Assembly: GCF_024298765.1 (NCBI RefSeq) | Contig: NZ_CP101210.1 | Direction: 5' to 3' (one strand) | Source: Escherichia coli | GTDB taxonomy: Bacteria; Pseudomonadota; Gammaproteobacteria; Enterobacterales; Enterobacteriaceae | Length of the DNA stretch: 64,000 nucleotides | In this document: positions 28,837 through 48,998 of the stretch, one piece after another | How the letters are laid out: every line of letters begins with the position of its first letter | Position numbering within the stretch: the stretch's first letter is position 1 | Made by a program: the position numbers and the translations under genes | Notes under the pieces: model-generated | Told to the model about the DNA's origin: nothing | Databases searched by the model: none | Seen by the model: the letters and a program-made list of their open reading frames with translations, nothing else

Positions 28837-29478
28837 TCAGCGACCAATCACCACAACCTGACCACCATCACCTTCATCTGCTGTGCTGATCTCCTGAGAT
28901 ACCACACGTGATCCCACGCGCATTTCACCGTACAGAACGGGCAGAACATTGCCCTGGGCAACCATATTATCCAGTGAAGAAAAATAGGTGTTCTGTTTGC
29001 CGTTATCCGTTGTCTGTGTGCTGGGGGTTTTGGGTTTAGGGGCCAGCATCTGTGCAACACCGCCAAGCGTCATACTGGCACCGAGAGAAAACAGCAGATT
29101 ACTCGCCATAATTCCTACCCCCGGCATCCATATAGCAACCGCCATAACAGCCGCCCCCAGCACAGCCTGAAACACACCGCCACTTTTGGCTCCTGCCAGA
29201 CGCGGCACGATATGGATCACAGCACCATTTGCCAGCGGTTCATTAAGACGGGCTGATAATTCCGTTTCACCTGTATCACGCCCGGCAATCCGTACCTGAT
29301 ACCAGCCGTCGCTCAGTTTCTGACGAAACGCCGGGAGCTGTGTGGCCAGCGCCCGGATGGCTTCAGCCCCCGTTTTCACACGAAGGTCGATGCGGCGACC
29401 AAATCGTTGTAAATCCCCGTAAAGGCAGATGCGCGCCATGCCCGGTGACGCCAGAGGGAGTGTGTGCGTCGCTGCCAT
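28837..29478 (-). CDS. I: tail assembly protein I
   Basis: 213-aa ORF, MAATHTLPLASPGMARICLYGDLQRFG... as in lambda gpI. Confidence 0.9.
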   Translation of the reverse strand: MAATHTLPLASPGMARICLYGDLQRFGRRIDLRVKTGAEAIRALATQLPAFRQKLSDGWYQVRIAGRDTGETELSARLNEPLANGAVIHIVPRLAGAKSGGVFQAVLGAAVMAVAIWMPGVGIMASNLLFSLGASMTLGGVAQMLAPKPKTPSTQTTDNGKQNTYFSSLDNMVAQGNVLPVLYGEMRVGSRVVSQEISTADEGDGGQVVVIGR

Positions 29479-30119
29479 TTGTCGGTATACCTCTCTCGTT
29501 TGCTCAGTTGTTCAGGAATATGGTGCAGCAGCTCGCCATCACCACAGTAAATGGCGGCATGATTCGGCACCGATGAACCAAAACAGCACAGCAGCACATC
29601 GCCCGGTTGTGCTGATGACAACGGCACCTGATACAACCCTGTGGCCTCCAGATTATCCAGATAGAGATTCTGACCGTGACGCCACCAGTCATCCTCGCGA
29701 TGAAAATCCGGCATCTCAATCCCCGCCAGATGATAAGCATCCCGGAACAGCGTGTAACAGTCCGTCACCCCGTGCTCAAAGCGCCGCCCGGTGAGATGCG
29801 GCACACAGCGGAACTTATGAATCGTCCCCCGGCAGACCAGCCACCACGGCAAATCACTCTGCACCTGCAGCCGCCGGTCGGCCTCACTCAGCCAGGGCAG
29901 ACCACCGGGGTGGCTGTGGACCAGCGCCACAATCTCACCCTGCATTTCTGCCTGCAGCCAGTCTTCCGGCGACATACGGAAATACGCCTCCGGCTCACCG
30001 GAGATATTCACGCAGGGGAAATATCTTTCCCCCTCCGGCGTGCTTACCACGAAGCCGCACGACTCCGCTGGCGCACATCGCCGGGCGTGCGCCAGAATCG
30101 CTGATTCTGTCTGTGTCAT
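29376..30119 (-). CDS. K: tail assembly protein K (NlpC/P60 + JAB/MPN domains)
   Basis: 247-aa ORF; HSHP and Cys-His peptidase motifs; exact start uncertain. Confidence 0.85.
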   Translation of the reverse strand: MTQTESAILAHARRCAPAESCGFVVSTPEGERYFPCVNISGEPEAYFRMSPEDWLQAEMQGEIVALVHSHPGGLPWLSEADRRLQVQSDLPWWLVCRGTIHKFRCVPHLTGRRFEHGVTDCYTLFRDAYHLAGIEMPDFHREDDWWRHGQNLYLDNLEATGLYQVPLSSAQPGDVLLCCFGSSVPNHAAIYCGDGELLHHIPEQLSKRERYTDKWQRRTHSLWRHRAWRASAFTGIYNDLVAASTFV

Positions 30120-30124
30120 GGGAT

Positions 30125-30823
30125 TTACTGCGAAAGTTTGTTAATGGAAAGGAAGCCGCCAAAGTTGCCGACGTTATTGCGAAACTTACAGCCACTCAGG
30201 CATTTGCTGCACTTATCCTTCGTGATATCGGACGTTGGCTGGTCATATTCATCCGCGACCGCCGGACCGTGATAACCGCACTCATCGCCGCGATAGGTCC
30301 AGGTGCAGGTGTTGGCCAGCATGATACGTCCCGGAAAAACAGCGCCATCCGTTTCCGTCGGCGTGGACAGTACAAAGGAGGCACTGACCGCGCTCAGTTC
30401 GCTGCACTGCTCGATGCGCCAGCGGCTGATCACCTCCTGCTCCGGATCGGCGTCGCTGTTTCCGTTGACGAAGTTCACCGCATCCAGAAAACGGGCGTAA
30501 ACCTTACGCCGGACCACCGTTCCGCCGACCAGACTCTGCATATCTTCCGCCATCCCGGTGACCATACCGTACAGGTTAGAAACCGTCAGCGTGGGGCGTG
30601 TACTGGTGCCTTTGCCATTCAGTTCAAAACCGCTCCCCTGAATGGGATACGGCTGATACTGTCGCCCCTGCCAGGTGACCGGCTCACCTTTTTCGTTCTG
30701 CTCATTACAGAAAAAATAACGTTCTCCACCGACCTCTGTCAGGTCGATTTCCCAGAGCACCACGCTGGCCGACTGCTCCGCACGGGTGCATTCATTCAGT
30801 GTTTCCTGCCGGATATCCTGCAT
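30125..30823 (-). CDS. L: minor tail protein L
   Basis: 232-aa ORF matching lambda gpL. Confidence 0.95.
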   Translation of the reverse strand: MQDIRQETLNECTRAEQSASVVLWEIDLTEVGGERYFFCNEQNEKGEPVTWQGRQYQPYPIQGSGFELNGKGTSTRPTLTVSNLYGMVTGMAEDMQSLVGGTVVRRKVYARFLDAVNFVNGNSDADPEQEVISRWRIEQCSELSAVSASFVLSTPTETDGAVFPGRIMLANTCTWTYRGDECGYHGPAVADEYDQPTSDITKDKCSKCLSGCKFRNNVGNFGGFLSINKLSQ

Positions 30824-31152
30824 CAGTTCACCACCTGTTCAAACTCTGCGCTGAACTCAACACGCAGCATACTGACCCGCGACGACCATTTTGCGCAGGT
30901 CACCTTTATCTGCCGCCACTCATAAGGCGGCGTCCACAGAAAGGCTTTCCAGCCCCCGTGCTCTTCCAGAAACGACTCCAGTACCGTGGCCTCCTCACGG
31001 GGGACAGAAAGCGTCACGCTGTACGTTTTCAGGTTGGCATTCAGCCCGGCAGGCGCTCGCTGGGAATAGCCATCACCAAAGCGCACCTTTCTTACAGAAG
31101 GGGCCGAAGCCACATCCATACCGGGTTTCACTTTCCAGCGGAAGGTTTTCAT
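30823..31152 (-). CDS. M: minor tail protein M
   Basis: 109-aa ORF matching lambda gpM. Confidence 0.95.
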   Translation of the reverse strand: MKTFRWKVKPGMDVASAPSVRKVRFGDGYSQRAPAGLNANLKTYSVTLSVPREEATVLESFLEEHGGWKAFLWTPPYEWRQIKVTCAKWSSRVSMLRVEFSAEFEQVVN

Positions 31153-33710
31153 CGTCCACCTCCGGAGAACAGGCCACCATCACGCATCTGTGTCTGAATT
31201 TCATCACGGGCACCCTTGCGGGCCATGTCATACACTGCCTTCATCATCTGTGGACCTGGCAGACCATTCGTACCGTCGTTCTGAATCACCACGTGATTGT
31301 TCTGATTAAAATTAATGCCTTCAGCCCGCCGCATCTGCGCCGGACTTCCGGCACCGCCCACATAACCACCTTCCGCATAGCCCCGCATCAGGCGGTACAG
31401 GTTGCCGACACCAATCCGGCTGGTTGCCTCCTTCGTGAAGACAAATTCACCACGGTGAACAATCCCCGCTGGCTCATATTTGCCGCCGGTTCCCGTAAAT
31501 CCCCCGGTCGCAAAATGGAATTTCGCCGCAGCTGCCTGAATGGCTGTACCGCCTGACGCGGATGCGCCGCCACCAACAGCCCCGCCAATGGCGCTGCCGA
31601 TACTCCCGACAATCCCCACCATTGCCTGCTTAAGCAGAATTTCTGTCATCATGGACAGCACGGAACGGGTGAAGCTGCGCCAGTTCTGCTCACTGCCGGT
31701 CAGCATCGCCGCCATATTCTGTGCAATACCATCAAAGGTCTGCGTGGCAGCACTTTTAACCTGCGACATACTGTCCGTGGCGCTCTCTTCCCACTCACTC
31801 CAGCCGGACTTCAGGCCTGCCATCCAGCTCCCGCGAAGCTGGTCTTCAGCCGCCCAGGTCTTTTTCTGCTCTGACATGACGTTATTCAGCGCCAGCGGAT
31901 TATCGCCATACTGTTCCTTCAGGCGCTGTTCCGTGGCTTCCCGTTCTGCCTGCCGGTCAGTCAGCCCCCGGCTTTTCGCATCAATGGCGGCCCGTTTTGC
32001 CCGTTGCTGCTGTGCGAATTTATCCGCCTGCTGCGCCAGCGCGTTCAGGCGCTCCTGATACGTAACCTTGTCGCCAAGTGCAGCCAGCTGGCGTTTGTAC
32101 TCCAGCGTCTCATCTTTATGCGCCAGCAGGGATTTCTCCTGTGCAGACAGCTGGCGACGTTGCGCCGCCTCCTCCAGTACCGCGAACTGACTCTCCGCCT
32201 TCCACAAATCCCGGCGCTGCTGGCTGATTTTCTCATTTGCTCCGGCATGCCTCTCCAGCGTCCGGAGTTCAGCCTGAAGCGTCAGCAGGGCAGCATGAGC
32301 ACTGTCTTCCTGACGATCGCCCGCAGACACCTTCACGCCGGACTGTTTCGGCTTTTTCAGCGTCGCTTCATAGTCCTTTTTCGCCGCCGCCATCAGCGTG
32401 TTGTAATCTGCCTGCAGAATTTTCCCGTCCTTCAGTGCCTTGTTCAGTTCTTCCTGACGGGCGGTATATTTCTCCAGCGGCGTCTGCAGCCGTTCGTAAG
32501 CCTTCTGCGCCTCTTCGGTATATTTCAGCCGTGACGCTTCAGTATCGCTCTGCTGCTGCGCATTTGTGTCCTGTTGACTCTGCTGTTCAGCCTTCTTTCT
32601 CGCGGCTTCAAGCGCAAGACGGGCCTTTTCACGATCATCCCAGTAACGCGCCCGCGCTTCATCGTTAACAAAATAATCATCCTTGCGCAGACTCCAGATG
32701 TCGTCCGCTTTCTTAAACGCAGCCTCTGCCTTAATCAGCATCTCCTGCGCGGTATCAGGACGACCAATATCCAGCACCGCATCCCACATGGATTTGAATG
32801 CCCGCGCTGTCCTGTCTGCCCAGGTCTCCAGCGTACCCATGTTCTCTTTCAGGCGGCGGGTCTGGTCATCAAACCCTTTCGTCGCGGCCTCGTTCGCCGC
32901 CTGCAATGCCCCGGCTTCATCGCCGGAACGCTGCAACTGAGCAACATACGCAATCTGCTCCGCCGTCACGTTATGGAACTGGCGTGCCATCGCCGTCAAC
33001 CCCGACGTCGGGTCTGTGGTCAGCTTCCCGAAGGCTTCAGCGACCTTGTCCACCTCCACACCGGATGCAGAGGAGAAACGCGCCACACTCTGGCTGATGG
33101 ACGCAATCTGAGCCTCACCGCTTACTCCCGCCTTAACCAGTGCGCTGAGTGACTCGCTGGTCTGGTTAAACGTCAGCCCTGCCACCTGCCCGGCTCTGGA
33201 CAGGACCAGCATGCGATCTGCCGTCAGACCCGACTGATTGCCGGAAAGGACCAGCGTTTTGTTGAAATCGGACAGGGTTGAGTTGCCCTGATACCAGGCA
33301 TACGCCAGCGCACCGGTCGCCACCGCCAGCGAGGTGGCCCCCACCATCGGCAGGTTGATCGCACCGGCAAGCCCCCTGAACATGGGGATCATCCCGCCGA
33401 AGGAGTCCTTAACCTGCCCCCCCTGTTGCAGCAGGATCAGCCACGGACTTTGCCCGCCTGCAAGCTGCGTGGCCACGTCGGTGAACTGTGCAGGCAGCAT
33501 ACGCATGGCGGCTTTATACTGTCCGACGGAAATCCCCGCTTTCTGTGCAGCCAGCGCCTGCCGGTTCATTGACTGTTCAACGACTGCCGCTGTTTTTTTC
33601 GCATCACTTTCCGTACCGGAAAAATGACGCCTGACTCTGGCCATCTGCTCGTCAAATCTGGCCGCATCCAGACTTAAATCAACGACCAGATCGCCTACCG
33701 GTTCAGCCAT
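31149..33710 (-). CDS. H: tail tape measure protein H
   Basis: 853-aa ORF matching lambda gpH. Confidence 0.95.
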   Translation of the reverse strand: MAEPVGDLVVDLSLDAARFDEQMARVRRHFSGTESDAKKTAAVVEQSMNRQALAAQKAGISVGQYKAAMRMLPAQFTDVATQLAGGQSPWLILLQQGGQVKDSFGGMIPMFRGLAGAINLPMVGATSLAVATGALAYAWYQGNSTLSDFNKTLVLSGNQSGLTADRMLVLSRAGQVAGLTFNQTSESLSALVKAGVSGEAQIASISQSVARFSSASGVEVDKVAEAFGKLTTDPTSGLTAMARQFHNVTAEQIAYVAQLQRSGDEAGALQAANEAATKGFDDQTRRLKENMGTLETWADRTARAFKSMWDAVLDIGRPDTAQEMLIKAEAAFKKADDIWSLRKDDYFVNDEARARYWDDREKARLALEAARKKAEQQSQQDTNAQQQSDTEASRLKYTEEAQKAYERLQTPLEKYTARQEELNKALKDGKILQADYNTLMAAAKKDYEATLKKPKQSGVKVSAGDRQEDSAHAALLTLQAELRTLERHAGANEKISQQRRDLWKAESQFAVLEEAAQRRQLSAQEKSLLAHKDETLEYKRQLAALGDKVTYQERLNALAQQADKFAQQQRAKRAAIDAKSRGLTDRQAEREATEQRLKEQYGDNPLALNNVMSEQKKTWAAEDQLRGSWMAGLKSGWSEWEESATDSMSQVKSAATQTFDGIAQNMAAMLTGSEQNWRSFTRSVLSMMTEILLKQAMVGIVGSIGSAIGGAVGGGASASGGTAIQAAAAKFHFATGGFTGTGGKYEPAGIVHRGEFVFTKEATSRIGVGNLYRLMRGYAEGGYVGGAGSPAQMRRAEGINFNQNNHVVIQNDGTNGLPGPQMMKAVYDMARKGARDEIQTQMRDGGLFSGGGR

Positions 33711-34137
33711 ACCGGACTCCTCCTGCGATCCCTTCTGATACTGTCATCAGCATTACGTCATCCTCCGTCATGTCCGCCACATCCGGGGAAGCGGGGATAA
33801 CTTCATTCCCGTCCGGGCCAAAACGAACGCCTCCGGCAAGCCCTGCCGCTTTCTGCATCAGCACATCATCTTCAGGCTCTTCGTCAGCCTCGCGCCGGTT
33901 CAGCAGACTGAAATCCAGCGGATGCATCTCCGGATCGCTGAAAAACAGGCTGAGCACGGTGTACGTCAGCCCGGAAAAGTGCATATCCAGCAGAACATCA
34001 TGAAAATAATGGGTACTGTAAAAGCGGTGCCAGTCGGCATACTCCGTGGATGACATCCCGGCAAGCATGGCGCGCCAGTCGGGTCGCCCCATCTCACGCG
34101 CCAGTTTCAGGGCAAAACTCAGCTCACCGTCGAACAC
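33703..34137 (-). CDS. T: tail assembly chaperone T frame (expressed as G-T fusion by -1 frameshift)
   Basis: 144-aa ORF overlapping G 3' end; slippery GGGAAAG at the overlap. Confidence 0.85.
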   Translation of the reverse strand: MFDGELSFALKLAREMGRPDWRAMLAGMSSTEYADWHRFYSTHYFHDVLLDMHFSGLTYTVLSLFFSDPEMHPLDFSLLNRREADEEPEDDVLMQKAAGLAGGVRFGPDGNEVIPASPDVADMTEDDVMLMTVSEGIAGGVRYG

Positions 34138-34541
34138 TTTCCCGCAGAAACAGGCACTGCAGGCCCGGCGTCCTCTGCCTGTTCAGGAGCATCATTCACC
34201 ACAAACTCATACATACCGGACAGCCGGTACACCACGTTTTCAGCATGAGAAATTGCCTCTGTGGGCCAGGTGGTAAGCACTTCCTGCTCAATCTGTTTAA
34301 CGGCTTCATTCATGGAAGGCAGCTTTGTCTTCTGCGGATGGTTATGCCACAGGGACATCGCTACCACAAAAGCACCGGTTCTGATGGCGTCTTCCACAGT
34401 AAACTTCCGGTTGCTGTCTGACTCCGCCTGTTCTGCCTGCCGTTTCATCAGGTCGAGATGCTCAATACGCTGCAGGGCTGACAGTTCAGAAAGCGTGACG
34501 GTCACACCGTTATGTTCAAATGATTCGGTTTTCAGGAACAT
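34119..34541 (-). CDS. G: tail assembly chaperone G
   Basis: 140-aa ORF matching lambda gpG. Confidence 0.92.
   Translation of the reverse strand: MFLKTESFEHNGVTVTLSELSALQRIEHLDLMKRQAEQAESDSNRKFTVEDAIRTGAFVVAMSLWHNHPQKTKLPSMNEAVKQIEQEVLTTWPTEAISHAENVVYRLSGMYEFVVNDAPEQAEDAGPAVPVSAGKCSTVS
34137..34143 (-). other. programmed -1 ribosomal frameshift slippery site (G GGA AAG) for G-T
   Basis: ctttccc on + strand = GGGAAAG on minus strand at the G/T overlap. Confidence 0.75.
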
Positions 34542-34556
34542 CGCTGACTCTCCGGA

Positions 34557-35297
34557 TTAACTGGCGGTGACGTTGATTTCTGCAACCGCAGCAAACTCAC
34601 CATTACCAGATACGACCGGAATGTTGACCTTGCCTGCAGCAACACCTTTCACGGTGATGGTCATACCACTGACCGACACGGTGGCTTTTGTTTTATCCGC
34701 AGACACCGCACGGAAGCTCTTGTCGGTTGCGCCATCCGGCTGGAATGCCACGGTCAGCGTGGTGCTCTGCCCTTTCACTACGGAAGCACTGGCGGGTGTC
34801 ACCGTCATGCCGGTCGTCGCCGTCACCGTGCTGCGATCTTCTGCCATCGACGGACGGCCCACATTGGTGACCTTCACCGTGCGGGTAATCACTTCCTTCG
34901 CCGTCACCGCCTTACCGATACTGCTGACCCAGCCACGGAACACATCGACCGTGCCGTTCGGGAAGCGGATTTTATAGGCACGGGTATCACCTTCATTAAA
35001 CCACGCCAGCAGCGCCTGCTGCCCCTGCTCTCCGGGCATCCACGCCAGCGTGAAGCTGGTATCTCCGGCAGATTTCTGCCCCTGCCCGGTCGCAGTCCAG
35101 TCTGCATCTTCATCATCGAGATAGCTGTCGTCATAGGACTCAGCGGTCAGTTCGCCGGGCGTCAGGTCTTTAACTTTTGCCAGACGCGACCAGTCAACGT
35201 CTGAAAGCGGGTTCGCATAAGGGTCACCGCTCCCCTTATAAACCCACAGGGTGGTTCCGGCACCTTTCACCGGTATTGCTGGATTTGGTACAGGCAT
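34557..35297 (-). CDS. V: major tail protein V
   Basis: 246 aa from [16 protein letters not shown]...; C-terminal Ig-like domain. Confidence 0.95.
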
Positions 35298-35304
35298 ATC
35301 GTCC

Positions 35305-35700
35305 TCACATTTCATAGGTAATGACATACGTCAGATCGGCAGAACTCCACAAGCCCGCATCATCGTCGCGCCGGTAGTCATAGCCACTGGCCACCATACT
35401 GGTGATCAAATCTGACAGTGCCGGGATATCGCTCATCACCGGATAAATCCGGGACTCCATCCACGCATCCAGCTCTGAATCCGGCACCTGAGCAGGCAGG
35501 AAAACTTCAATATGCAGCTCCGCCTGCCAGGTATCGCTGTCCAGCTCTTCGCCCGTGTATTCAGCGCCGGTGAGATAAACGGCAATTGCCGGAAAATCTT
35601 CCTCATCAAAAACAGCAGGGCGACCATCAAAAAACGTCGCCCCGGTGTCATGCTTCTCCAGTGCATCCAGTACGGCTGCACGGAGTTCAGTATGTTTCAT
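35305..35700 (-). CDS. U: tail terminator protein U
   Basis: 131-aa ORF matching lambda gpU. Confidence 0.95.
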
Positions 35701-36275
35701 CGCTTTATTACCATCCTCAGTTGATGCTGCAGCGCATAGCCCAGCTCTTTCGGAAGACGCTCACGCCGTATCCGCTCAATATTCTGTTTAAACGCCGTGG
35801 TCAGCGGCACCGCCATCGGGATTTTCACCACATCAATGGGGTAACGGTTTTTCCCGGCCACACGCTGCATGACATGCCAGCGGCCATTTTTCAGTTGCTG
35901 AATAAACGCGCCGGGAATACGACGGTTTCCCACCACAAGCACGCTGCCGCCACCTTTCAGGGCTGAACGCTGCCCCTTTTTACGACGCCTGCGTCGGGAC
36001 AGGACAATCCGCGCGTTACCCAGCTTTATTACGGGCAAATCCCCCCGGTTAACCTTGATTCTGGCCTGCGGATTTTTGACCGTGGCCCTTTTCAGCCAGG
36101 CCCTTTCCTTTACCAGTTTCCGGCGTACCTTTGTCTCACGGGCAACCTGTGACGCCGACTGCGATATCGCGGATGAAGCAACGCGGTTAATGGCCATTGC
36201 GGCGGCACCGGGCACCGCCGTTCTGCTGATACGGCTGAGGTTTTCAACGGCCTGCTCAAGACCTTTTATGGCCAT
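35697..36275 (-). CDS. Z: tail completion protein Z
   Basis: 192-aa ORF matching lambda gpZ. Confidence 0.93.
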   Translation of the reverse strand: MAIKGLEQAVENLSRISRTAVPGAAAMAINRVASSAISQSASQVARETKVRRKLVKERAWLKRATVKNPQARIKVNRGDLPVIKLGNARIVLSRRRRRKKGQRSALKGGGSVLVVGNRRIPGAFIQQLKNGRWHVMQRVAGKNRYPIDVVKIPMAVPLTTAFKQNIERIRRERLPKELGYALQHQLRMVIKR

Positions 36276-36286
36276 ACATCCCCCTT

Positions 36287-36640
36287 TCAGCGGCGACGGT
36301 TAACGGCAGGCGGTACGCCCCGCCCAAGCCAGAGATGACAGCTTCCGCCATCATCCGGCGAAATCCGGTCTATCCAGAAGTTTTCCTCACCGATGGTCAG
36401 CGTGTCGCCGCGCCGCAGCTGCCGCACATCATCAGTCCGGACAAACAGGGACGGGCTGGAGCCTTCAACGCGTACGCCCTGTCCGGCATAGCTGATATTT
36501 TCAGGGTCATCAAAAACACCACGTATTACTGCGCCGGACTGCTCACCGGATGTCATGGTGGCTGACGTTCCCATGTACCCGCGTATCGTTTCATCGGCGC
36601 GGGCAATGGCAGCATCGAACAGGTTATCGAAATCAGCCAC
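36287..36640 (-). CDS. FII: head-tail connector protein FII
   Basis: 117-aa ORF matching lambda gpFII. Confidence 0.93.
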   Translation of the reverse strand: MADFDNLFDAAIARADETIRGYMGTSATMTSGEQSGAVIRGVFDDPENISYAGQGVRVEGSSPSLFVRTDDVRQLRRGDTLTIGEENFWIDRISPDDGGSCHLWLGRGVPPAVNRRR

Positions 36641-36651
36641 AGCGCCTCCCG

Positions 36652-37047
36652 TTATTGCATTCTGGCCAGGCCGCGCTCTGTCATTTCAGCTGCCACACCG
36701 GCAGAGACACGGAACGCCGTTCCCGGCAGCACAAATGCCACAGCCTCATCCCGCGTGGCGTGAAGTGCATCAGTATGCAGCGTCACCAGTGCCACAACCG
36801 TGACCAGATCAGCCGTATCAGTCACGGTATCCGGCTGCGCTGATACCACCTCATTTTCATGTCCGGTCAGCGCATTTTCCGGGCTGACAGATGTGTCCTG
36901 ACCGGCAGCGTCATCCGTGTCATCAAGCTCCTCTTCCAGCTCTGCCACACGGAGCGCCAGTTCTTCTTTCGTCCCCGTCAGGCTGACATCACGGTTCAGT
37001 TGTTCACCCAGCGAGCGGAGACGGGCAATCAGTTCATCTTTCGTCAT
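36652..37047 (-). CDS. FI: DNA packaging protein FI
   Basis: 132 aa from MTKDELIARLRSLGEQLN... Confidence 0.9.
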   Translation of the reverse strand: MTKDELIARLRSLGEQLNRDVSLTGTKEELALRVAELEEELDDTDDAAGQDTSVSPENALTGHENEVVSAQPDTVTDTADLVTVVALVTLHTDALHATRDEAVAFVLPGTAFRVSAGVAAEMTERGLARMQ

Positions 37048-37088
37048 GGACTCCTCCACAGAGAAACAATGGCCCCGAAGGGCCATGA

Positions 37089-37877
37089 TTACGCCAGTTG
37101 TACGGACACGAACTCATCAGGGTCAGCCAGCAGCATCAGCGGTGCTGACTGAATCATGGTGAACTCACGCGCCGGATCGCCGGTGGTCACCCAGTTTTTC
37201 GGGTAACGGGCAGAGGCGTTAATGCCTTCGCGCTGTGCGTCCGCATCCTGAATGCAGCCATAGGTGCGCAGACCGCGTGCATGAGTGTTACCCAGCACCA
37301 TCGTGTTGTCCGGCAGGAAGTTCTTTTTGACGCCGTTTTCCACGTACTGTCCGGAATACACGACGATGGCCACATCGCCATACATCCCCTTATAGGACAC
37401 CGCTTTACCCAGGTCTTTCACCGCTGTCTCCAGCTCGGAATGAGAGCCGCGACGGGTATCCAGCTTCTCCTTGACGGCGTTGAAGGAACGGAACAGCGCC
37501 CAGCCTTTCGGATCAAACACGATGATATTCACCACGCCGCTGGCGTTCAGCGCGTAGGCTTCGATATCGTCGGTCGGGTCATACGTGGACTTGTCACGCT
37601 TGCTCCACTCCGTGCCGCCGGACTGCGTGATGTTGTTCGCCGCACTGCGGCCCATATCCACCTCAACCGGATCGAAGGCTTCACCGGTCATGGTGTATTT
37701 GCCCTTGAGCACGGCAGAAACTGCCTGCATCTCTTCGACCTGAGCAATGGCCAGCTCTTCGTCACGCATGTTCTGCAGGATGATGCGACGGCGGCGGTAA
37801 GCCGGGTCCGCCAGATTCTGCGGATCTTCATCCGGCAGGCGACGCAGGGTCATCTGCGGATTCACTTCATGCTTGGG
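37089..37877 (-). pseudogene. E: major capsid protein E, C-terminal portion (gene split by island insertion)
   Basis: Encodes ...PKHEVNPQMTLRRLPDEDPQ... to the E C-terminus; upstream in-frame sequence is island DNA with an immediate stop. Confidence 0.9.
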
Positions 37878-37879
37878 TT
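37870..37879. repeat. island left junction direct repeat (att core) tgcttgggtt
   Basis: Identical 10-mer recurs at 48754-48763 at the other E junction. Confidence 0.8.
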
Positions 37880-38013
37880 ACATGAGTCAAATATGAAAGG
37901 ATGTGAATGATTTGATTACGTTTTAGCTATAGAATTGAAATGGAAAATCCTTGAATGCAATACAACGTGCAATACATGGATGAAAACCATCACTCATTTA
38001 ACAAGAGGAATCT

Positions 38014-38919
38014 ATGCGCTCACCCAACAGAATGCATGAACGCTCAACATTTTATAAGTATATGTCGTTGAATACCGCGAAGATTGTTCTTGATTCATGC
38101 AGCCTTAGATGGAGTTCTCCGGTCCTATTTAATGACCCTTTTGATGTTCCAAGAGAAGTTATGCCTGGTATTAACGAAATTAATATTGGCAAAGCTTTAG
38201 CCCGCAAGTTAATAGCGGAGTTGATTACCCCCAGAGAAGACATACAAAATTTAAACCCTAGAATTAGAACAATGCTAAGTGATTTCCAAAAGTCATTTCC
38301 TTTAGGCATACCCGCAGGATTAATTGAAAGATTTCAAGAAATGGTAAACATTCCACCAGTTGGGATTGGCGCTCCTGCGGCAATACAAGAAATGAAAGAT
38401 ATCTGGCGAGGAATGCTTAATAACAGAAGGATTTTGTGTTTATCTGAGAGCCCTATAATCACTCCTATGTGGAATCACTATGCCGATAAATATAAAGGTA
38501 TAGTTATCGAATTTGATTGTGTAGACTTTCTGGATAGCGCTTGGTTAATAGCCAAACCTATGAAATACACAGATGAAATGCCTCTAACTCACACTGCTGA
38601 AGGGATGGCCGAGTTGCTTTTCATGCCAGACAATAAGTCAATTGAATATATCAATAATGAGATAATATTCATAAAAACAGAAGAATGGGCATATGAAAGA
38701 GAGTGGAGAATTTCAACCTACGCTAGGCCAAATAGCACTGGTCAATATAGCGACTTAAAATTTCACCCTTTTGAGTTAAAATCTGTAATACTTGGTCCTC
38801 TTTTTGATGCCAGCGAGTTCGATGAAGTCGCATCACTAGTTAAAATGTATCCAAGAGCGAAATTATTTAAAAGTTCATTTGGGAACGACAGAAAAATATC
38901 CATAGTACCACTACCTTAA
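38014..38919 (+). CDS. hypothetical protein, DUF2971-like (low-GC cargo gene)
   Basis: 301-aa ORF with GAGGA RBS; motifs FYKY...LRWSSPVLFNDPFD, MWNHYADKYKGIVIEFD, EREWRI recalled as DUF2971-like; family assignment from memory only. Confidence 0.6.
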   Translation: MRSPNRMHERSTFYKYMSLNTAKIVLDSCSLRWSSPVLFNDPFDVPREVMPGINEINIGKALARKLIAELITPREDIQNLNPRIRTMLSDFQKSFPLGIPAGLIERFQEMVNIPPVGIGAPAAIQEMKDIWRGMLNNRRILCLSESPIITPMWNHYADKYKGIVIEFDCVDFLDSAWLIAKPMKYTDEMPLTHTAEGMAELLFMPDNKSIEYINNEIIFIKTEEWAYEREWRISTYARPNSTGQYSDLKFHPFELKSVILGPLFDASEFDEVASLVKMYPRAKLFKSSFGNDRKISIVPLP

Positions 38920-38949
38920 AAGGTCAAATGCTTTTGACAAATAAAATCT

Positions 38950-38976
38950 ATCGCCAGTTTTACTGGCGACTTTTAA
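38950..38976 (+). terminator. hairpin terminator between convergent DUF2971-like gene and Nu1-like gene
   Basis: cgccagttttactggcg stem-loop followed by cTTTTaa. Confidence 0.35.
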
Positions 38977-39025
38977 GCAACAAAGAACCACCTAAGCACT
39001 CTTCCTACCTATGGTTTCATTTGTT

Positions 39026-39577
39026 TTAACTTCGCTGATTATCCTTGATATACCTTTCAGCCATATCTGGAATGTTATCTGAGATCTGGTAAGCTCGAAT
39101 AAATGCTTTACTGACCTCCATCTTAATGAAGTCCTGATACCGTTTTTCCATGCCAGGAAACTGTCGACAGATCGCAAGTGGAAGACTATCAATGATTGCT
39201 CCAACTTCCCCAGTTAATTTCGACAAGGCATAAGTCGCAAATGCAGTGTCAATTACCTCACCTGTTTCGCTGGCATTCTTCAGTTCCTGTGCGTCGGCCT
39301 GCGCACGCGTAAGTCGATGGCGTTCGTACTCAATAGTCCCTGGCTGGAGATCTGTCTCGCTGGCCTGCCGCAGTTCTTCAACTTCCCGGCGCAGCTTTTC
39401 GTTCTCAATTTCAGCATCCCTTTCGGCATACCATTTTATGACGGCGGCAGAGTCATAAAGCACCTCATTACCCTTGCCACCGCCTCGCAGAACGGGCATT
39501 CCCTGTTCCTGCCAGTTCTGAATGGTACGGATACTCGCACCGAAAATGTCAGCCAGCTGCTTTTTGTTGACTTCCAT
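39026..39577 (-). CDS. terminase small subunit homolog (Nu1-like chimera)
   Basis: 183 aa; residues 1-~103 essentially identical to the prophage Nu1 at 54397-54942 (winged-HTH cosB-binding domain), C-terminal ~80 aa diverged. Confidence 0.88.
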   Translation of the reverse strand: MEVNKKQLADIFGASIRTIQNWQEQGMPVLRGGGKGNEVLYDSAAVIKWYAERDAEIENEKLRREVEELRQASETDLQPGTIEYERHRLTRAQADAQELKNASETGEVIDTAFATYALSKLTGEVGAIIDSLPLAICRQFPGMEKRYQDFIKMEVSKAFIRAYQISDNIPDMAERYIKDNQRS

Positions 39578-39739
39578 TGTTCATTCCACGGACAAAAACA
39601 GAGAAAGGAAACGACAGAGGCCAAAAAGCTCGCTTTCAGCACCTGTCGTTTCCTTTCTTTTCAGGGGGTATTTTAAATAAAAACATTAAGTTACGACGAA
39701 GAAGAACGGAAACGCCTTAAACCGGAAAATTTTCATAAA

Positions 39740-39800
39740 TAGCGAAAATCCGCGCGCCTGACGCCCCGTAGCCTGTCAGATCGCCGGAAAGGACCCGCCA
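39740..39800. other. cos-like site of the island (variant cosN)
   Basis: Aligns to prophage cos at 55100-55165; the 12-mer equivalent to the cohesive end (39755-39766, cgcctgacgccc) differs at 5/12 positions from aggtcgccgccc. Confidence 0.7.
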
Positions 39801-39822
39801 GCCAGAGCGGGCCCTAATTTCA

Positions 39823-40206
39823 TCAACCAATCAGCTTATAGCGACCATCCCGTGCATTGCGGCGTACACGCTCAATCTTGAGGCATAGCGCCGCATCTGG
39901 CTTTTTTGGGACAGGTACGCGGCAATATTCAGAAGCGCGAGGAATATTATTTATCCAGTCGATCACTTCACTTAAATACCAGGCCTTACGCCCTTCCGTA
40001 ACCTGCACACGCTCCGGGAACTCTCCACTAGCCTCAAGGTTTAGCAGTGTACGCCGACTCAGGGTTGTAATTTCCATCACCTGATTCATATCAACAAGGC
40101 GCTCGCTTAAACACATTTTGTCAGCGATAGCTTTTAATTCCTCTACAGCTGGATTCGGGTACATCATTTCGGCAATTGGCTTAAGGTCATTGTAATCATT
40201 CTGCAT
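39823..40206 (-). CDS. AlpA/MerR-like HTH protein
   Basis: 127-aa ORF; central motif ITTLSRRTLLNLEASGEFPERVQVTEGRKAWYLSEVIDWIN resembles AlpA-family HTH. Confidence 0.6.
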   Translation of the reverse strand: MQNDYNDLKPIAEMMYPNPAVEELKAIADKMCLSERLVDMNQVMEITTLSRRTLLNLEASGEFPERVQVTEGRKAWYLSEVIDWINNIPRASEYCRVPVPKKPDAALCLKIERVRRNARDGRYKLIG

Positions 40207-48590: not shown

Positions 48591-48752
48591 TTTTAGCCCC
48601 AAAAAGCAATACAAGCTGCAATACAGAGATGATTGCAACACACAGATAACGAGGAAAATTCAGTGAAAGCACCAGATAAACTTATTCTTTATTATCAAAA
48701 GATTAAGTGTAAAAACCAGCAACTACACGAAAGCCTCAGAAAGCCATGCTAA

Positions 48753-48998
48753 GTGCTTGGGTTTGACATATCCCGGCGTAAATTCAGAGGTGGAGCCGCC
48801 ACGGGAACGGATAACCTCACCGGAAACAATCGGCGAAACGTACAGCGCCATGTTTACCAGTCCCGGAATTTGTGAGAGATAGACTTTCTCCGTAGTGAAG
48901 GGATAGCTCTCACGGAAAAAGAGACGCAGAAACAGCGGATCAAACTTAAATTTCTGCTCATTTGCCGCCAGCAGCTGGGCGGTTGTGTACATCGACAT
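48753..48998 (-). pseudogene. E: major capsid protein E, N-terminal portion (82 codons) truncated by island
   Basis: MSMYTTAQLLAANEQKFKFDPLFLRL...GYVKPKH then island-derived LAWLSEAFV and stop. Confidence 0.9.
48754..48763. repeat. island right junction direct repeat (att core) tgcttgggtt
   Basis: Identical to 37870-37879. Confidence 0.8.

Follow-up and report, generated by a model that had tools for sequence, protein, structure and literature searches.

The 301-amino acid open reading frame on the plus strand at positions 38014 to 38919 of the window (the whole 64,000-nucleotide stretch of Escherichia coli contig NZ_CP101210.1 analysed here) is a genuine gene, whose product is most likely a single-gene, abortive-infection-type (Abi) anti-phage effector with an ADP-ribosyltransferase (ART) core, carried as accessory cargo of a phage-inducible chromosomal island (PICI) of the helper-embedded type (HE-PICI). 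We assign this function, the phenotype of which is inferred, a probability of about 0.5. The reading follows from the nature of the product, an ART-like DUF2971 protein, and from its slot, which known anti-phage genes occupy in sister satellites; the gene most likely adds one more member to an established type of defence cargo. The features on which the analysis draws are collected in Table 1.

Table 1. Features of the DUF2971 gene, its cargo module and the ends of the host island (window coordinates).
Feature	Position	Strand	Remarks
att core TGCTTGGGTT, left copy, inside prophage capsid gene E	37870..37879	.	
Candidate sigma-70 promoter, -35 ATGATT, 17-nt spacer, -10 TAGAAT	37907..37935	+	relaxed scan, weak, 8/12 matches
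Low-GC cargo module, including the 3' 71 codons of the terS ORF	37914..39239	.	other cargo in sister islands
Doubled motif TGCAATACA-ACG-TGCAATACA in the 5' leader of the DUF2971 gene	37956..37976	+	attP-flanking motif of HE-PICIs
Shine-Dalgarno AGAGGA	38004..38009	+	read from sequence
DUF2971 / PDC-S31 gene, 301 aa	38014..38919	+	predicted ADP-ribosyltransferase-like fold
N-terminal conserved block, residues 13-47: FYKY (K15 at motif-I position), RWSSP, NDPFDxPR	38050..38148	+	52 and 244 homologues
Variable four-helix insert, residues 49-137, between core strands	38158..38424	+	helices 55-71, 82-94, 101-112, 120-137
Pfam DUF2971 core, residues 152-233: MWxHY through K221, W225, ExEWR	38467..38712	+	Pfam match boundaries, residue counts
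GC-rich hairpin, bidirectional terminator-like, between convergent DUF2971 and terS	38951..38969	.	site found on minus strand
Chimeric small-terminase gene (terS), lambda Nu1 residues 1-112 plus novel 71-aa C-terminus	39026..39577	-	neighbour, converges on DUF2971 gene
att core TGCTTGGGTT, right copy, adjoining N-terminal fragment of capsid gene E	48754..48763	.	

A good Shine-Dalgarno sequence lies 4 nt from the ATG (38010-13), and the chance of a 301-codon open frame at a GC content of 37.6% is ~1e-9, as calculated from base composition. Homologues of the protein, ~300 aa in length, align over 98-100% of the query, N-terminus included, and thus the long frame is the true one. The RefSeq model of the gene, 252 aa with a start at window position 38161, was judged truncated, and the frame upstream of its start is intact in the RefSeq-annotated strain as well. 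This amounts to an annotation correction, the RefSeq model being 49 codons short and devoid of the conserved beta1 motif. An 85-aa antisense frame (38052-38309) was rejected; it lies entirely within the conserved gene and is otherwise unsupported. A GC content well below that of the neighbours had been claimed for the gene, and this was borne out: the gene has 37.6% GC (GC3 33%) versus 57.4% in the prophage tail genes at 29376-37865, and the island 44.7%. A strict promoter scan detected nothing ahead of the DUF2971 gene, and the candidate that emerged from the relaxed scan is no evidence of function. Downstream, the region from 38915 to 38990 folds with a dG of -22.1 kcal/mol (z -5.5).

Membership in the DUF2971 family, as originally proposed, was confirmed by a match to the full Pfam model (PF11185, positions 1-89 of 89) over residues 152-233 at E 2e-9 and score 39.1; all 52 aligned homologues matched the model at E <= 0.001, and RefSeq and UniProt likewise name the protein DUF2971. 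The motifs on which that proposal was based are found at residues 13-16 (FYKY), 38-44 (LFNDPFD), 152-158 (MWNHYAD) and 228-232 (EREWR), in invariant or near-invariant columns. An HMM check against a defence database, which had been suggested for this gene, gave a strong match to the candidate family PDC-S31 of PADLOC (PDLC04990, E 1.8e-32, residues 9-289 on model positions 5-246 of 259), and four more PDC-S31 models match the protein, while an NCBIfam search of it returned no family. The gene resembles PDC-S31 in its single-gene architecture, with neighbours that differ in every context examined, and in the span of the best model. PDC-S31 is itself a candidate family from bioinformatics, for which we found no published phenotype or mechanism, nor any paper mentioning it in our literature search.

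Conservation is concentrated in a small set of residues: K15, D41, W153, Y156, K221, E230 and R232 are invariant across 244 diverse representatives, five of them (W153, Y156, K221, E230 and R232) within the Pfam core, where the ExEWR motif also includes E228. The motif-I position is occupied by Lys15 in 229 of 229 ungapped sequences. The N-terminal segment, although outside the Pfam model, could be aligned to the corresponding part of a classical DUF2971 protein ([Y/F]-H-Y-T...NDP), only 1 of 500 shuffles scoring as high, and K15 falls on the His of this paralogue's classical 'HYT' motif. Clustering at 50% identity puts the family at ~20,600 clusters at E <= 1e-3, and at 649 clusters of close full-length relatives.

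The AF2 model of the protein (pLDDT 94.3, pTM 0.86; beta1 at residues 12-17, beta2 at 30-34) has an ART-like fold with a split beta-sheet, closest to that of nucleic-acid-acting ARTs. Candidates for the aromatic or STS residues of motif II and for the catalytic Glu (ExE) of motif III are Y156, S34-S35 and E228-x-E230, which vary little or not at all and are located on the expected elements of the model, and the rigid invariant set of K15, Y156, K221, E228/E230 and R232 suggests, at the level of sequence, an active-site-like conservation. The canonical His/Arg of motif I on beta1 is absent, its place being taken by Lys throughout the subfamily; since Lys at this position was reported in the related Lsan_0116 family (PMC12522546), it may be no bar to catalysis. 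Column entropy is 2.1 in the helical insert versus 0.9-1.3 in the core, so that the ART segments are conserved and the helical inserts variable. The four-helix insert is a candidate sensor or regulatory module, and the variable helical inserts may serve as sensors or auto-inhibitors.

DUF2971 was predicted in a published analysis to be a DarT/AbiGi-like ADP-ribosyltransferase (PMC12522546). In our searches, the family profile matched no ART among PDB sequences, giving chance helical matches only; Foldseek found nothing in the PDB at E <= 0.001, with DarT appearing only at E 0.3-2; and an hhalign comparison between the family and three DarT sequences from the PDB, whose own alignment was very shallow, gave a probability of 0.07, with no signal in global or local mode. 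The relationship to DarT therefore rests on the fold and on the published analysis. Compared with DarT, the protein has Lys for the motif-I His, is enlarged by two long helical inserts and carries an additional beta-alpha-beta unit at its C-terminus. It also differs in context: the DarT of DarTG comes with the DarG macrodomain antitoxin, whereas none is encoded beside this gene, and a DarTG-type toxin-antitoxin pair was rejected because a partner gene is missing.

The host island is an HE-PICI of the "11capE" class, inserted in the lambda-like prophage capsid gene E. The original prediction had placed the gene at the terminus of a satellite. The position stands, as the gene starts 134 bp inside the island att core, at the island terminus, and on the strand opposite to every core island gene; the island, however, is not a free-standing chromosomal element but is embedded in a prophage capsid gene, a class of PICI already described (PMC10111431; Tommasini, Mageeney & Williams 2023). 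It resembles 11capE in its length of ~10.9 kb, its lambda-like capsid gene E, its att block, for which a 10-bp identity block was reported in 11capE (PMC10111431), its doubled TGTATTGCA motif and its gene order, int-alpA...pri-ssb-capsid-decoration. The attP-flanking motif is given as tgTGTATTGCantgTGTATTGCa in the same paper, and the doubled TGCAATACA motif of the DUF2971 leader has a second copy in the island at 48606-48625. That paper reported 201 capE HE-PICIs. Unlike 11capE as described, the present copy harbors the DUF2971 module and a chimeric terS. An Rfam scan over the whole island identified no RNA family.

Comparing the cargo of related islands, as had been proposed, revealed a variable slot in which defence genes reside. 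Homology to the sister islands ends at 37913 and restarts at ~39592-39830, lambda-like DNA covers only 39240-39798, and an Enterobacter island matches the module at 86% identity over 37623-39304. Among capE islands that are 97-99% identical in their core, the slot is occupied by DUF2971, by an AbiJ-like protein (E 2.4e-22 in a sister island), by a DUF262+HEPN pair (in four sampled islands; matches to NsnA at 2e-59, PD-T4-2_A at 7e-39 and PD-T4-2_B at 2e-4) or, in one island (L002), by a different gene encoding an uncharacterised 311-aa protein. The cargo module was found in 36 of 5426 complete E. coli genomes, in all of them at an identity of at least 99%, versus 364-392 genomes for the island core, which makes the gene accessory, as anticipated; the possibility of a core satellite gene was rejected, given that the gene is absent from most related islands. 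A passage in PMC11364771, citing Fillol-Salom et al. 2022, describes the 5' and 3' ends of PICIs as immunity hotspots. As with that cargo, and with the hotspots of P4 (PMC9122126), the slot described here is variable, lies at the end opposite the integrase, and sees Abi and defence genes exchanged among otherwise near-identical islands. Unlike those hotspots, it belongs to a helper-embedded element within capsid gene E, and defence cargo is not discussed for the HE-PICI class in PMC10111431.

Orthologues occupy the equivalent HE-PICI slot in Enterobacter (88% identity) and Klebsiella (72%), in the latter without a Nu1-like neighbour. Other relatives have other surroundings: one of 56% identity adjoins HEPN_AbiV and a YjhX toxin, a Thiobacillus relative adjoins a Gp49/HTH_3 gene pair resembling a toxin-antitoxin, and certain distant homologues, e.g., in an Opitutaceae MAG, lie among housekeeping genes. 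No conserved partner gene was found in any context examined, and no macrodomain (DarG) gene near this gene, whose neighbours are the att site and the convergent terS, or beside the homologues examined. A tblastn search of phage genomes yielded six weak matches, none of them close, and a search of plasmids yielded only relatives below 31% identity, with no Lactococcus record among the matches listed. Thus, the close subfamily is not typical of plasmids or of sequenced phages.

The statement that DUF2971 has no defined function no longer fully holds, as the family is a predicted ART (PMC12522546) and one distant member, Aristaios, has a demonstrated Abi phenotype. This 316-aa DUF2971 protein of the Lactococcus plasmid pUCCL641_199 was experimentally shown to be a single-gene Abi system (PMC11381338), which halts transcription of the phage and the making of its proteins (PMC11381338, PMC13064643, PMC12967558). 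It differs from the present gene in its Gram-positive host and in being plasmid-borne rather than part of a satellite, and the two are likened via their shared Pfam domain only.

For the protein studied here, NAD+ use, target and trigger are all inferred. As a stand-alone enzyme of ~300 aa with an ADP-ribosyltransferase core, it would be held inactive in the uninfected cell. Upon infection by a competing phage it would use NAD+ to ADP-ribosylate nucleic acid (or, less likely, protein), which would shut down phage gene expression or replication and so protect the lysogen population together with the satellite and its helper. Since the gene is convergent at the distal end of a satellite within the helper late operon, Q-antiterminated late transcription of the helper would cross it in antisense, and could silence it when the helper itself is induced. 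Counting against a defence enzyme, no antitoxin or other obvious brake is encoded nearby for a potentially toxic enzyme. A more specific version of this reading, which we regard as speculative and quite unlikely in its full detail, is that of an antitoxin-less, DarT-like nucleic-acid ART whose motif I is of the Lys type. Its own rapidly evolving helical insert would hold it off and a component of the competing phage would turn it on, with a helper-sparing regulation that arises from the embedded configuration. Here, antisense late transcription, or binding of Int/AlpA at the candidate leader sites, could switch the defence off exactly as its own helper and satellite are induced.

Several other explanations were weighed against a defence enzyme. 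The ART-like fold might be non-catalytic or serve other chemistry, such as a Tpt1-like RNA 2'-phosphotransfer or an unrelated nucleic-acid transaction, in which case the role would not be NAD+-dependent defence. We consider this unlikely, as the strictly invariant ExE-type motif, Tyr and Lys at ART motif positions argue, from sequence conservation, for an active enzyme. The catalytic tetrad of Tpt1, Arg-His-Arg-Arg, is not evident among the invariant residues of this protein, and Tpt1/KptA is a housekeeping enzyme rather than a mobile-element product. The independent placement of DUF2971 in the ART superfamily (PMC12522546) and the Abi phenotype of Aristaios (PMC11381338) point the same way. 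Improbable, too, is a role in conflict between satellite and helper, in which the protein, working with the chimeric TerS, would favour packaging of the satellite by modifying DNA, RNA or packaging proteins of the helper. In its favour, interference with helper packaging is a known trait of PICIs (PMC6092414), a single low-GC module, which the Enterobacter island shares, comprises both the DUF2971 gene and the novel terS C-terminus, and the orthologues keep the equivalent slot in HE-PICIs of three genera. Yet in most of the sister islands that share this core the gene is missing and unrelated cargo is found instead, the Klebsiella island has the gene without the Nu1-like neighbour, relatives are found outside any satellite, and transcription of the gene runs opposite to that of the packaging operon.

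To a selfish stabilising toxin (an addiction module) or a general stress toxin, which would retain the island with no phage-specific trigger, we give a small probability. ART toxins such as DarT are toxin-antitoxin toxins, and relatives of the gene do adjoin a YjhX toxin or the Gp49/HTH_3 pair in other genomes; here, however, there is no antitoxin candidate, be it a conserved neighbour or a macrodomain gene, the flanks consist of the 134 bp from att core to start codon on one side and the convergent terS on the other, and the Rfam scan of the island offered no RNA family either. The probability that the product is secreted and acts as a virulence effector in a eukaryotic host is very low indeed. 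About 18% of DUF2971 proteins are predicted effectors (PMC12522546), but in this protein the N-terminus is polar and runs straight into beta1 with no signal-like hydrophobic stretch, secretion genes are absent nearby, the gene is carried by a varied set of commensal and environmental E. coli, and the slot otherwise holds Abi or defence genes. We rejected this explanation for want of a signal sequence and of a secretion context.

If the gene is indeed a defence gene, it would provide a tractable E. coli representative of a very large and almost unstudied family, in which Aristaios is the only tested relative and has no known mechanism, target or trigger, and it would open up the biochemistry of antitoxin-less ART defence. 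It would also mean that HE-PICIs, whose description has so far been confined to the biology of their integration, bear interchangeable immune genes at the distal end, with consequences for how composites of lambdoid prophages and satellites influence the phage resistance of E. coli, Enterobacter and Klebsiella.

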